The notes under the pieces are model-generated. The model made no database searches, was not told where the DNA came from, and saw nothing but the letters and a program-made list of their open reading frames with translations. From positions 1,056,001-1,120,000 of the forward strand of contig CM000434.1 in assembly GCA_000165345.1 (NCBI GenBank): 64,000 nucleotides of DNA, read 5' to 3'. This document shows, in pieces, positions 13,464-47,545 of the stretch. Every line of letters begins with the position of its first letter. Within the stretch, counting starts at the first letter, position 1. Position numbers and translations under genes: made by a program.

Positions 13464-13508
13464 ACGTGTCAATTGCATGCATGCGTGTTTGCTTGCAAAC
13501 ACCGGTAT
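13464..13508. promoter_or_regulatory. Composite palindromic motif module between two convergent 3' ends: CACGTG, TGCATGCATGC, GTGTTTGC-TT-GCAAACAC and ACCGGTAT
   Basis: CACGTG is at 13464-13469. TGCATGCATGC is at 13474-13484. An 8+2+8 inverted repeat lies at 13485-13502. ACCGGTAT is at 13501-13508. All sit in the 180-bp spacer between the SF3B4 stop and the Sey1-like stop. Confidence 0.5.
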
Positions 13509-18950: not shown

Positions 18951-19024
18951 GTTGGCGCCTTTGCATGTATTATTTCACGATAATAATTTGTCGCGCCCCC
19001 GAGATTGCATGCATGCATGCATGC
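18951..19024. promoter_or_regulatory. GGCGCC + TTGCATG + (GCAT)4.5 tandem TGCATGCA array upstream of gene 19167
   Basis: ggttggcgcc is at 18951-18960. ttgcatg is at 18961-18967. tgcatgcatgcatgcatgc is at 19006-19024, 145 bp upstream of the ATG at 19167. Confidence 0.5.
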
Positions 19025-44962: not shown

Positions 44963-45841
44963 TTATTGATTTGAGTCTTGCTTACTAGTGGTTATTTCAG
45001 CATCGTTAGAGAGTTGTTCAAAACTGAAGTCTTGATTTTCAACAAGAGTTTTTTCTACTGGGTTATTTGGTTGGTCTTGCTTATTAGTTGGACTGGTTTC
45101 AAGCTCTTGTTCGGAAACTTGCTCTAACATTGTATCTGAGATTGAAGCATTATCTAAATTAGAATCAGAAGAATTAATCAATTTTGAAATAGCCTGTACG
45201 CTAATAGAGATTGATTCTTTTTCTGTTTCTGGAATGGCCTCTCTTTCCAAAGGTGATTCTTGGCCTTTATTCTGAATAAGCGTTTGAATTATTTCTTCTT
45301 GTGAAGATATTTCAGAGTTTCTTTCAACTTCAGAATTCAAGTTTAAAGTGAAATCCGTATTGCCAAGTTCTGACCCAGAAAAATTTTTAATAGAATCCTC
45401 TTTTTTAGAATCTTGGCTTAAAGAAGTATTAATTACTTCAACTTTTAATATATTTAATTCATTATCTTTTGAATCAAATTTTCCAAACTTTATATTATTA
45501 TTTTCATTTAATCCAGAATTTAAATTATCATTATTTGATTCATTTAAGTTGGGTTTTTTATTTGGCTTAGATTTCTTTTTGTTCTTTTTACCAGTTTTAT
45601 TAGTTTTCTTTGCATTACTAGGATTCAAAAGTTTGAGTTCTTTTTTATATCTAATTAGTGAAAGTTTGTTTTCTACATCCACCAATTCTGTATTATCGAT
45701 AATAATCTAATTATTCAAAGTTATTGATTAATATAATAAGAATTAGTTTATATATAATAAACTTACATTAAATGGGCAAACTTCATCTGGGGATGAATCA
45801 CAAACTTGTTTAATAAACTTTTTCCTTAATGAAGATGCCAT
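44963..45841 (-). CDS. Lys/Asn/Ser-rich low-complexity protein, two-exon model, about 273 aa
   Basis: The track ORF at 44963-45685 starts on TTG. Its frame is open upstream to a TAG at 45709-45707 with no ATG, and that TAG is the acceptor AG. Proposed exon 1 is 45841-45767 (ATG; MASSLRKKFIKQVCDSSPDEVCPFN). The intron is 45766-45707 (GTAAGTTTATTATAT...GAATAATTAG, 60 nt). Exon 2 is 45706-44963 (IIIDNTELVDVENKLSLIRYKKELKLLNPSNAKKTNKTGKKNKKKSKPNKK...). There is no recognisable domain. The 5' exon sits 20 bp from the stop codon of the upstream GT34 gene. Confidence 0.45.
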
Positions 45842-45861
45842 TGGTGTAAGGCCTATATTAA

Positions 45862-47243
45862 TCAAAAGATTGATCGCTTATTAATATGTTTTCTTTTTTT
45901 TAGAATTATAAACCGACCTGATAAATGTGCAATCCAGTCTCCACTTCTCCAATGCCAAAGTAAGTTATCTTTTCTAAAATGTGTAGAACTTCTCCTCACC
46001 GAATTCATGACTCTTGGTGAAACTACTGTAATGTTATCGCTTGAGTAAATAATTCCATTTAGATCTAAATTATTTTGCATTACAAATGTGCAATACTTGA
46101 GTATCTTTTCAGCTTCGATTTCATTTTTATCTTTTACAAGTATATTGGTTAATAATGGTTGATCTTTCAAACCTTGAAAAAAAAATAGAGAAAGAAAATA
46201 TTAAATGGAGTGAATGTAGATACTGATTATTATTATTTCAAATGATTCTTATTACATACCTTTAGCATTCCAGTGATTCTCTCCATTATATAACAAACTA
46301 TTTCTATAAGCCTTTGAATATAAATGAGTATAATGTCAAAAATAACCAAACTATTACTTTTCTCATTCCATTAAACTATTACTGGTCATTCAAAACTTAC
46401 CTGTTTAATTAATACTTGGAAAACTAATTGAAGAGAAAATAAGGAATTTTTGAATAGCATTATTCCATTATTTATTGGATATCTCTCATCAAAACACTTA
46501 GTATCAGCTGAAATAATTAAAGCAGTGCTAGCTAAAGTATACTTTTCAATAATATCTTCAACTTTGACTTGATAATTTGTAAACATTGCATCCAAATCCA
46601 TATACAATACCCAATCAATACTTTTTAGATTTACGATTTTTTTATTATATGTTACTAATTCTTGATTTGTGAATAACTTCCAAATTGCTAAATATCTCCA
46701 ATAATGAGGAAAAGCACACTCTTGTTCTAATTGAAGTTAATGTAAGCTTAGATACTGCATTTAAACATACCTTGAGTTTTATTTGAACTATTATCTTTAG
46801 ATTCATCTTGTCTAATTTTTTGAGAAAAAAAAATTCAAATTTGTCATTAAAAAGAGTATTAAAACTTACTTTTTAGTCTTTTTGCAAAAGAAGTGTAGAT
46901 AACAATATTTTTGTTTTCTTGAATACTCGATTCTGTTTCTTTCTAGCTCTACTAATGTGTTAAAATCCTCATCTCCTGCAGTCAAAATGACTATTCTACA
47001 TTGAATTTGCTTTGTTTCAGTAGTTCCCAATTCAAACTCATCATCCTCATTGTTCTCTTGATCATAATACAATGTGTTAAATAAGTATCTATCATTATTC
47101 CTTGTCCATTCTGGCATCCAATCTTGCAAATATGAAAATTTGAAATAGTTTTCATCGCCATTAATTTTTGAAACTGTTGCTTGATTGAATGAAATACCTA
47201 CAAAACTCAAAATATAAAATACTTTTAAAATTGTTTGAACCAT
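45862..47243 (-). CDS. GT34-family glycosyltransferase (Mnn10/Gma12/XXT-type alpha-1,6/1,2 hexosyl- or xylosyl-transferase), type II membrane topology, five exons, about 315 aa
   Basis: Exon A is 47243-46870. It begins MVQTILKVFYILSFVGISFNQ (signal anchor) and contains RIVILTAGDEDFNTLVELERNRIEYSRKQKYCY, compare GT34 PRIv.vTgSd...NK.dYcR.HGYe. Intron A is about 46869-46812. Exon B is 46811-46771. Intron B is 46770-46727 (GTATGT, 44 nt). Exon C is 46726-46401 and contains IDWVLYMDLDAMFTNY (GT34 WIWWMDSDAlFTD, the DxD motif) and INNGIMLFKNSLFSLQLV (GT34 LNAGVFLIRNCQWSLDFM). Intron C is 46400-46312. Exon D is 46311-46260. Intron D is 46259-46173 (GTATGT...TTTTTTTTTCAAG). Exon E is 46172-45862 and contains SSTHFRKDNLLWHW (GT34 THF block). 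The phases 2/1/0/1 close the frame. The track reports three separate ORFs. Coordinates may be off by 1-2 nt. Confidence 0.65.
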
Positions 47244-47509: not shown

Positions 47510-47545
47510 TGCATGCGCGCATGCATTTGCAAGTAATACCGGTAT
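47510..47545. promoter_or_regulatory. 16-bp perfect palindrome TGCATGCGCGCATGCA, then TTTGCAAG, then 10-bp palindrome ATACCGGTAT
   Basis: TGCATGCGCGCATGCA is at 47510-47525 and ATACCGGTAT at 47536-47545. They lie 270-300 bp upstream of the GT34 gene start (47243, minus strand) and 160 bp after the Spt5 stop (47702). Confidence 0.5.

Follow-up and report, generated by a model that had tools for sequence, protein, structure and literature searches.

A seven-exon Cryptosporidium parvum gene predicted to encode a divergent GT34-like glycosyltransferase

The fungal enzymes Gma12, an alpha-1,2-galactosyltransferase, and Mnn10/Mnn11, which are alpha-1,6-mannosyltransferases, belong to the Pfam family PF05637 and act in the Golgi lumen as retaining enzymes that use UDP-galactose (UDP-Gal) or GDP-mannose (GDP-Man). 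The plant xyloglucan xylosyltransferases XXT1, XXT2 and XXT5 are placed in CAZy glycosyltransferase family 34 (GT34; PDB 6BSU and 9P3J), and D228, D230 and H378 coordinate Mn2+ in XXT2 (PMC13376630). Viral GT34-like proteins, such as the N-terminal domain of PBCV-1 A64R (PDB 2P6W), are minimal domains of about 200 amino acids (aa). Here we describe a gene in a 64,000-nucleotide (nt) stretch of Cryptosporidium parvum DNA (GenBank assembly GCA_000165345.1, contig CM000434.1, positions 1,056,001 to 1,120,000 of the forward strand; hereafter the window). A homologue search identified the locus as 6g4640 of chromosome 6 (CPATCC_003045 / CPCDC_6g4640 / cpbgf_6004640; minus strand), whose product is described in public annotation as a hypothetical or uncharacterised protein of 623-625 aa. 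We think it very likely that this is a vertically inherited, seven-exon gene for a divergent GT34-like transferase, with old introns and an XXT-like mechanism that we infer by analogy. The product is an orphan enzyme, annotated but uncharacterised, and a divergent member of a known enzyme family rather than a new kind of system.

The gene runs from 47243 to 44963, spans 2.28 kb and consists of seven exons and six introns (Table 1). This model follows from the finding that the window encodes the public proteins residue for residue: CPATCC_003045 (P0174; also cpbgf_6004640; 625 aa) is reproduced exactly when exon 3 starts at 46726, and CPCDC_6g4640 (P0001; 623 aa) is reproduced exactly with exon 3 at 46720-46401. 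An initial annotation, which had proposed a chain of five exons, was right that a real multi-exon gene begins at the ATG at 47243. Its exons join in frame (a 1104-nt coding sequence for 367 aa), and its four introns, all GT..AG and 17-27% GC, are all kept in the corrected model; the two GTATGT donors that it singled out are those of introns 2 and 4, and its 44-nt intron is intron 2, which is used in the 625-aa public protein (CPATCC, cpbgf). The proposed end at 45862 did not hold, as introns 5 and 6 had been missed and the assigned stop codon (TGA, 45864-45862) sits inside intron 5. The last 17 residues of that model are read-through of intron 5, and none of the orthologues has their peptide, RFIILKKRKHINKRSIF. 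Splicing of introns 5 and 6 continues the protein with GLTPMASSLRKKFIKQVCDSSPDEVCPF, which varies little across all Cryptosporidium orthologues and Chromera velia; the pattern GLTPMA..LR.K....C...P....CPF within it is invariant in eight sequences from Cryptosporidium and Chromera. It is quite unlikely that the 367-aa product is a genuine isoform made by retention of intron 5. In its favour, the donor of this intron is weak (GTCGGT) and the read-through frame stays open for 17 codons, but the read-through peptide is not conserved, the invariant GLTPMA..CPF segment of the catalytic domain would be lost, and intron 5 is spliced in every recent public model.

Judged from Pfam matches, profile searches and the predicted fold, the catalytic domain is of the GT34 (GMA12/MNN10/XXT) type and represents a divergent branch of it that is apparently myzozoan. 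PF05637 was the only glycosyltransferase family in Pfam to be matched, and it was matched by all eight orthologues; PF01501 (GT8) and PF03407 (GT77) gave no match at E<=10 in any of the eight, and the other Pfam matches among them were two weak, unrelated ones, each in one member. The GT34 call of the initial annotation was thus borne out, as GT34-like and divergent, and the two blocks that it had pointed to, the DxD block WVLYMDLDAMFT (aa 177-188) and the NxG block INNGIMLFKNSLFSL (aa 223-237), are both present. Set beside the curated whole-protein cut-off of PF05637 (23 bits), the C. parvum catalytic domain alone scored 28.0 bits and the 367-aa model 26.7 bits. The C. andersoni orthologue scored 30.2 bits, the C. 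bovis orthologue 36.2 bits (profile positions 75-230 of 238) and a relative, P0013, 46.2 bits (positions 29-230). An exhaustive profile search of 1.84 billion cluster representatives returned 263 relatives at E<=1e-3, and a repeat homologue search with a diverse alignment made almost no additions. PF05637 was matched at E<=0.1 by 15 of the 20 relatives that were scanned.

A profile built from 23 sequences matched XXT5 (E 1e-11), XXT1 (6.6e-9), XXT2 (3.6e-8) and PBCV-1 A64R (1.8e-6) in the PDB and aligned the DxD, NxG and DQ blocks with those of the GT34 chains. GT8 chains were found neither with this profile at E<=10 nor with one restricted to myzozoan sequences, and a profile of the eight orthologues matched only potyvirus HC-Pro, by chance (E 0.12). 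An AlphaFold2 model from the 23-sequence alignment had a predicted local distance difference test score (pLDDT) of 89.1 and a predicted template modelling score (pTM) of 0.91; it replaced a model from seven sequences (pLDDT 52), which we discarded. When this predicted fold was compared with solved structures using Foldseek, XXT1 ranked first and GT34 structures were the nearest solved folds. In a library of viral structures, five of the seven best matches carried the name GT34, GMA12/MNN10 family or glycosyltransferase.

The likeness to the plant enzymes extends over the predicted GT-A fold and the DQ motif, and a candidate C-terminal histidine motif is present. The DxD block aligns with WWMDSDAMFTD of the XXT enzymes and the NxG block with LNTGSFLLRNSQWS (INNGIMLFKNS against LNTGSFLLRNS). 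Identity to the XXT enzymes is only 16-18%, however, and the C. parvum protein differs from them in a GLTPMA..CPF module with conserved cysteines and a long low-complexity tail, both of which lie outside every XXT alignment; furthermore, no glucan acceptor is known in Cryptosporidium. The viral GT34-like proteins, PBCV-1 A64R included, share 12-17% identity with the C. parvum protein and have neither a targeting segment nor its conserved C-terminal module. Comparison with the fungal enzymes was made through the PF05637 model, and the scores are at threshold level. According to a genus-wide reconstruction of Cryptosporidium glycosylation, both fungal donors, UDP-Gal and GDP-Man, are made by the parasite (PMC9713705), but Cryptosporidium N-glycans differ from those of the fungal systems in having no outer-chain extension (Haserick 2017, as cited in PMC9300197).

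Conservation across 23 homologues (20-61% identity to the C. parvum domain) outlines a candidate active site. In the numbering of the 625-aa protein, D182, D184, N224, G226, D268 and Q269 are invariant, and conservation of H347 and G350, both in GDWIAHLSG, is 90% or higher. In the alignment, D182-L-D184 falls on MDSD of XXT1, XXT2 and XXT5, and H347 lies in the region that the orthologues align to PF05637, up to position 230 of 238. By analogy with the XXT enzymes, D182 and D184 of the DxD motif would hold Mn2+ and the diphosphate of the nucleotide sugar together with H347, whereas N224-x-G226 and D268-Q269 would line the sugar pocket. The sugar would then be transferred with retention of configuration, giving an alpha linkage, onto an acceptor in the lumen of the endoplasmic reticulum (ER) or that of the Golgi. 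The same analogy leads us to expect a retaining transferase that depends on Mn2+ and takes its sugar from a nucleotide sugar. The likeliest donors would be UDP-Gal, UDP-glucose or GDP-Man, because according to the reconstruction these are the only nucleotide sugars that the parasite makes itself (PMC9713705); UDP-xylose is an unlikely donor. The strong divergence from characterised GT34 enzymes, and an activity that is predicted only, might raise the suspicion of an inactive pseudo-glycosyltransferase whose role is structural or lectin-like, but the candidate metal- and sugar-binding residues are invariant, or nearly so, in 23 distant homologues, and we regard such a loss of activity as very improbable.

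Several results weigh against reading the protein as a GT34-like, XXT-type transferase. The full-length C. parvum protein scored 22.4 bits (625 aa) or 21.1 bits (623 aa) against PF05637, just under the cut-off. The myzozoan-only profile matched only XXT5 (E 0.11) and XXT1 (E 2) in the PDB, and a significant sequence link to the solved GT34 enzymes therefore depends on bridging metagenomic sequences. Template modelling (TM) scores of the model against XXT1 were modest, at about 0.4. The equation of H347 with the XXT histidine comes from conservation and the range of the Pfam alignment, not from residue-level superposition, and HMMER alignments to XXT stop before the histidine motif. Finally, oocyst glycoproteomics has recorded no glycan that requires such an enzyme (PMC5549699; Haserick 2017, seen through its citation in PMC9300197).

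The motifs DxD, NxG, DQ and H-x-x-G are common to GT8 and GT34, and the enzyme could on that account belong to a neighbouring retaining GT-A family, GT8 or GT77, instead of GT34. Some orthologues are named 'Nucleotide-diphospho-sugar transferase domain-containing protein' in UniRef, which is the wording of the PF03407 description, and a few distant relatives have weak matches to PF01501, PF03407 or PF03314 (PF03407 in P0031 and P0035). We nevertheless consider such an assignment unlikely, given the silence of the GT8 and GT77 Pfam models on all eight orthologues and the lack of any GT8 chain among the PDB matches at E<=10.

In the C. parvum protein, a hydrophobic, putative targeting segment (aa 1-19) is followed by the catalytic GT-A domain (aa 34-379; about 345 aa), then by a short helix that is conserved and finally by some 220 aa of C-terminal tail. 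The initial annotation had described a type II signal anchor. The hydrophobic N-terminal segment is there, as a single stretch with a mean Kyte-Doolittle value of 1.72, but it has no cytoplasmic tail before it, and aa 1-19 would fit a cleaved signal peptide just as well as a signal anchor. We looked upstream for an exon that would supply a cytoplasmic tail in C. parvum and found no convincing candidate; an in-frame stop lies five codons 5' of the ATG. The tail at the other end (exon 7, 44963-45625) is of low complexity and poorly conserved, includes the lysine-rich KKTNKTGKKNKKKSKPNKKP, looks disordered and is peculiar to the intestinal species. The last 249 residues (aa 377-625) contain 14.5% N, 12.9% S, 11.2% E and 11.2% K, and C. 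andersoni and C. bovis have a short tail or none. In some relatives of 820-1349 aa (P0022, P0023 and P0030, among them a Colpodella angusta protein), a large insertion splits the catalytic domain and separates the DQ region from the histidine motif.

This layout bears on where the enzyme would act. A soluble, secreted enzyme with a cleaved signal peptide, working outside the parasite Golgi on the oocyst wall, in the parasitophorous vacuole or on host glycans, would fit a hydrophobic stretch that begins at or near residue 1 without a cytoplasmic tail, as in the C. parvum, C. bovis and C. canis models. It would also fit the long, lineage-specific low-complexity tail and the observation that no abundant parasite glycan needs such an enzyme (PMC5549699). 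We judge secretion decidedly improbable, since in C. andersoni, Chromera, Vitrella and P0011 a transmembrane segment comes after 19-111 residues of N-terminal tail, which in C. andersoni, Chromera and Vitrella is the classical arrangement.

The closest relatives of the protein are those of Chromera, Vitrella, a gregarine and a second Cryptosporidium paralogue, and on this sequence evidence its descent is vertical and goes back at least as far as the ancestor shared by Cryptosporidium and the chromerids. Orthologues from seven other Cryptosporidium species, which were all the species returned, group with a Chromera velia protein. All named relatives at E<=1e-23 are alveolates (Cryptosporidium spp., Chromera velia with two paralogues, Vitrella brassicaformis and the gregarine Polyplicarium), and a Colpodella angusta relative follows at E 1e-16. 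In a rough neighbour-joining tree with bootstrap, a clade A of 6g4640 orthologues, Chromera P0010 and metagenomic P0011 had 100% support, as did a clade B of the second Cryptosporidium paralogue, Chromera_2, Vitrella, P0013 and Polyplicarium; a sister relation between the two clades had only 23%. The second paralogue is represented by C. muris CMU_031410, C. andersoni cand_027600 and C. bovis FG379_001081. It has the same domain and motifs as 6g4640, with 27-29% identity, and is likewise paired with a Chromera paralogue, but it lies at a different chromosomal locus outside the window, where it adjoins RPL32e in C. muris, and it has almost no introns: the C. muris model contains one of 35 nt, which is doubtful. 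The GT34-like gene is present in one copy in the window. Toxoplasma PIGE (TGGT1_266320) was considered as an orthologue and rejected, as it is GT32-like and reported to be restricted to coccidia. One member of the distant P0039 cluster is a partial protein whose label assigns it to a Limisphaerales bacterium metagenome-assembled genome, which may reflect bin contamination or a genuine bacterial or viral homologue.

The initial annotation, with the distinct intron architecture in view, had asked whether the gene was vertical or acquired. Horizontal acquisition from a fungus, plant, alga or giant virus, with a foreign intron pattern, would accord with the fungal and plant sources of the characterised GT34 enzymes, with the presence of GT34-like proteins in giant viruses and phages, and with a literature search that found no mention of GT34 in Apicomplexa. 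We consider it extremely unlikely. The closest relatives come from chromerids, a colpodellid and a gregarine, the clade with Chromera is fully supported, and both gene order and intron sites are conserved across the genus: the order SPT5 / 6g4640 / RPS8e, with a WD40 gene further along, is kept in C. andersoni and C. bovis. The gene region is AT-rich (27-32% GC), and its base composition is like that of the rest of the window.

The six introns are old and common across the genus. We compared intron positions by mapping orthologous proteins onto their own genomic loci and found the same six introns in C. bovis, at identical codons and phases (2,1,0,1,1,0). C. andersoni has the same six and a seventh, of 55 nt and phase 1, at VTIL|ASREM (L001 4611-4665), which reflects either loss in the intestinal lineage or gain in the gastric lineage. 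Because six sites are common to C. bovis and C. andersoni, the introns are retained features and not a mark of foreign origin. The Vitrella relative has a phase 1 intron at AHFT|G, which is the site of C. parvum intron 5 (AHLS|G); since Vitrella belongs to the other paralogue clade, this shared site does no more than suggest that the intron is very old. Introns are lacking in about 90% of C. parvum genes, intron-bearing genes have 2-10 exons (mean 2.6), and the mean intron is 99 nt with 22% GC (PMC4637869). The intron load that the initial annotation found unusual was understated, at four instead of six. Long uninterrupted open reading frames (ORFs) fill most of the window, whereas 45700-47243 holds no long ORF on either strand. 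The six or seven introns kept across the genus, set against a nearly intronless paralogue, offer, on a small scale, a natural experiment in how a compacted genome loses introns.

What the enzyme might build can be set against the known glycome of the parasite, which is described as minimal. The genus-wide reconstruction does not list 6g4640, and the second paralogue was likewise not seen in the part that was checked; the same source states that Cryptosporidium has no enzymes that extend N- or O-glycans in the Golgi, and that the parasite synthesises UDP-Gal and is predicted to possess a transporter for it (PMC9713705). Oocyst glycoproteomics found O-linked N-acetylgalactosamine to be unextended (PMC5549699), and Cryptosporidium N-glycans are described as barely processed in the title of Haserick 2017, cited in PMC9300197. 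A literature search found no mention of cgd6_4640, nor of GT34 or GMA12 in Cryptosporidium. We tentatively propose, as a possibility that is somewhat short of even, that 6g4640 and its paralogue represent an ancient GT34-like branch, known so far from apicomplexans, chromerids and colpodellids, which makes an alpha-linked hexose modification that is missing from the Cryptosporidium glycome. Its target could be a glycolipid, an oocyst-wall component or a glycoprotein that is of low abundance or stage-specific. If true, this proposal would contradict the claim of the reconstruction that glycans are not extended beyond the ER. A conserved glycosyltransferase, predicted to enter the secretory pathway and with intact catalytic motifs, together with its paralogue, would suggest that at least one kind of glycan linkage has so far escaped notice, and the 6g4640 enzyme could account for part of the UDP-Gal capacity of the parasite, that is, its synthesis and predicted transporter.

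The locus also carries a warning for annotation, as its small exons and weak donors evidently defeat gene finders. Recent public C. parvum annotations disagree only over the acceptor of intron 2: CPATCC and cpbgf use TTAG (625 aa, ...KTQEQECAF...), and CPCDC and CPHLJ use CAAG 6 nt downstream (623 aa, ...KTQECAF...), at a tandem site (46721-46726) that could reflect alternative splicing or a difference in annotation. Several public models (P0002, P0004, P0005, P0007 and P0009) are wrong or fragmentary. In CAD98280, an older record from C. parvum, the 5' exon differs and exon 6 is skipped. Gaps in the C. ubiquitum and C. canis models fall over exon 2 and/or the start of exon 3, and a C. felis fragment of the orthologue carries the name 'nitronate monooxygenase'. 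The public C. bovis model (P0006, 374 aa) ends just after CPFQ and omits the last exon, IQINATELVEIENKLSLIRYKKEL... (L002 4432-4647); a seven-exon C. bovis model that includes this exon maps cleanly with canonical splice sites. At least six public records thus hold faulty or incomplete models that arose from weak donors and micro-exons, which also led the initial annotation astray.

Table 1. Exons, introns and an upstream element of the 6g4640 locus, in window coordinates
Feature	Position	Strand	Length	Description
Exon 1	46870..47243	-	374 nt	ATG at 47243; codes for the hydrophobic N-terminus (aa 1-19, 47243-47187) and the initial part of the GT-A domain; exact match to P0001/P0174
Intron 1	46812..46869	-	58 nt	GTAAGT..AG, phase 2; same site and phase in C. 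bovis and C. andersoni
Exon 2	46771..46811	-	41 nt	Micro-exon, QDESKDNSSNKTQ
Intron 2	46727..46770	-	44 nt	GTATGT..TTAG, phase 1; the alternative acceptor CAAG, 6 nt downstream, gives 50 nt (46770-46721)
Exon 3	46401..46726	-	326 nt	DxD block WVLYMDLDAMFT (46613-46578; D182, D184) and NxG block INNGIMLFKNSLFSL (46475-46431)
Intron 3	46312..46400	-	89 nt	GTAAGT..AG, phase 0
Exon 4	46260..46311	-	52 nt	AYRNSLLYNGENHWNAK
Intron 4	46173..46259	-	87 nt	GTATGT..AG, phase 1; splits the G265 codon, just before the invariant D268-Q269
Exon 5	45918..46172	-	255 nt	D268-Q269 and GDWIAHLS with the putative metal-binding H347
Intron 5	45853..45917	-	65 nt	GTCGGT (a weak donor), phase 1; site and phase shared with C. 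bovis and C. andersoni
Exon 6	45767..45852	-	86 nt	GLTPMASSLRKKFIKQVCDSSPDEVCPFN, best-conserved C-terminal part of the catalytic domain; invariant residues in eight sequences including Chromera
Intron 6	45707..45766	-	60 nt	GTAAGT..AG, phase 0
Exon 7	44963..45706	-	744 nt	Includes the stop; conserved helical stretch ELVDVENKLSLIRYKKELKLL, then a poorly conserved tail
Perfect palindrome	47510..47525		16 nt	TGCATGCGCGCATGCA; in the 458-bp SPT5-6g4640 spacer, about 270 nt upstream of the ATG

The palindrome upstream of the gene is a candidate promoter element. The octamer TGCATGCA, which we take to resemble AP2-type promoter motifs of apicomplexans, has 15 occurrences in the window where 0.89 would be expected, and comparison with the list of ORFs placed several copies between them, for example at 13474, 19006-19021, 21332/21347, 37526, 39112 and 42952.

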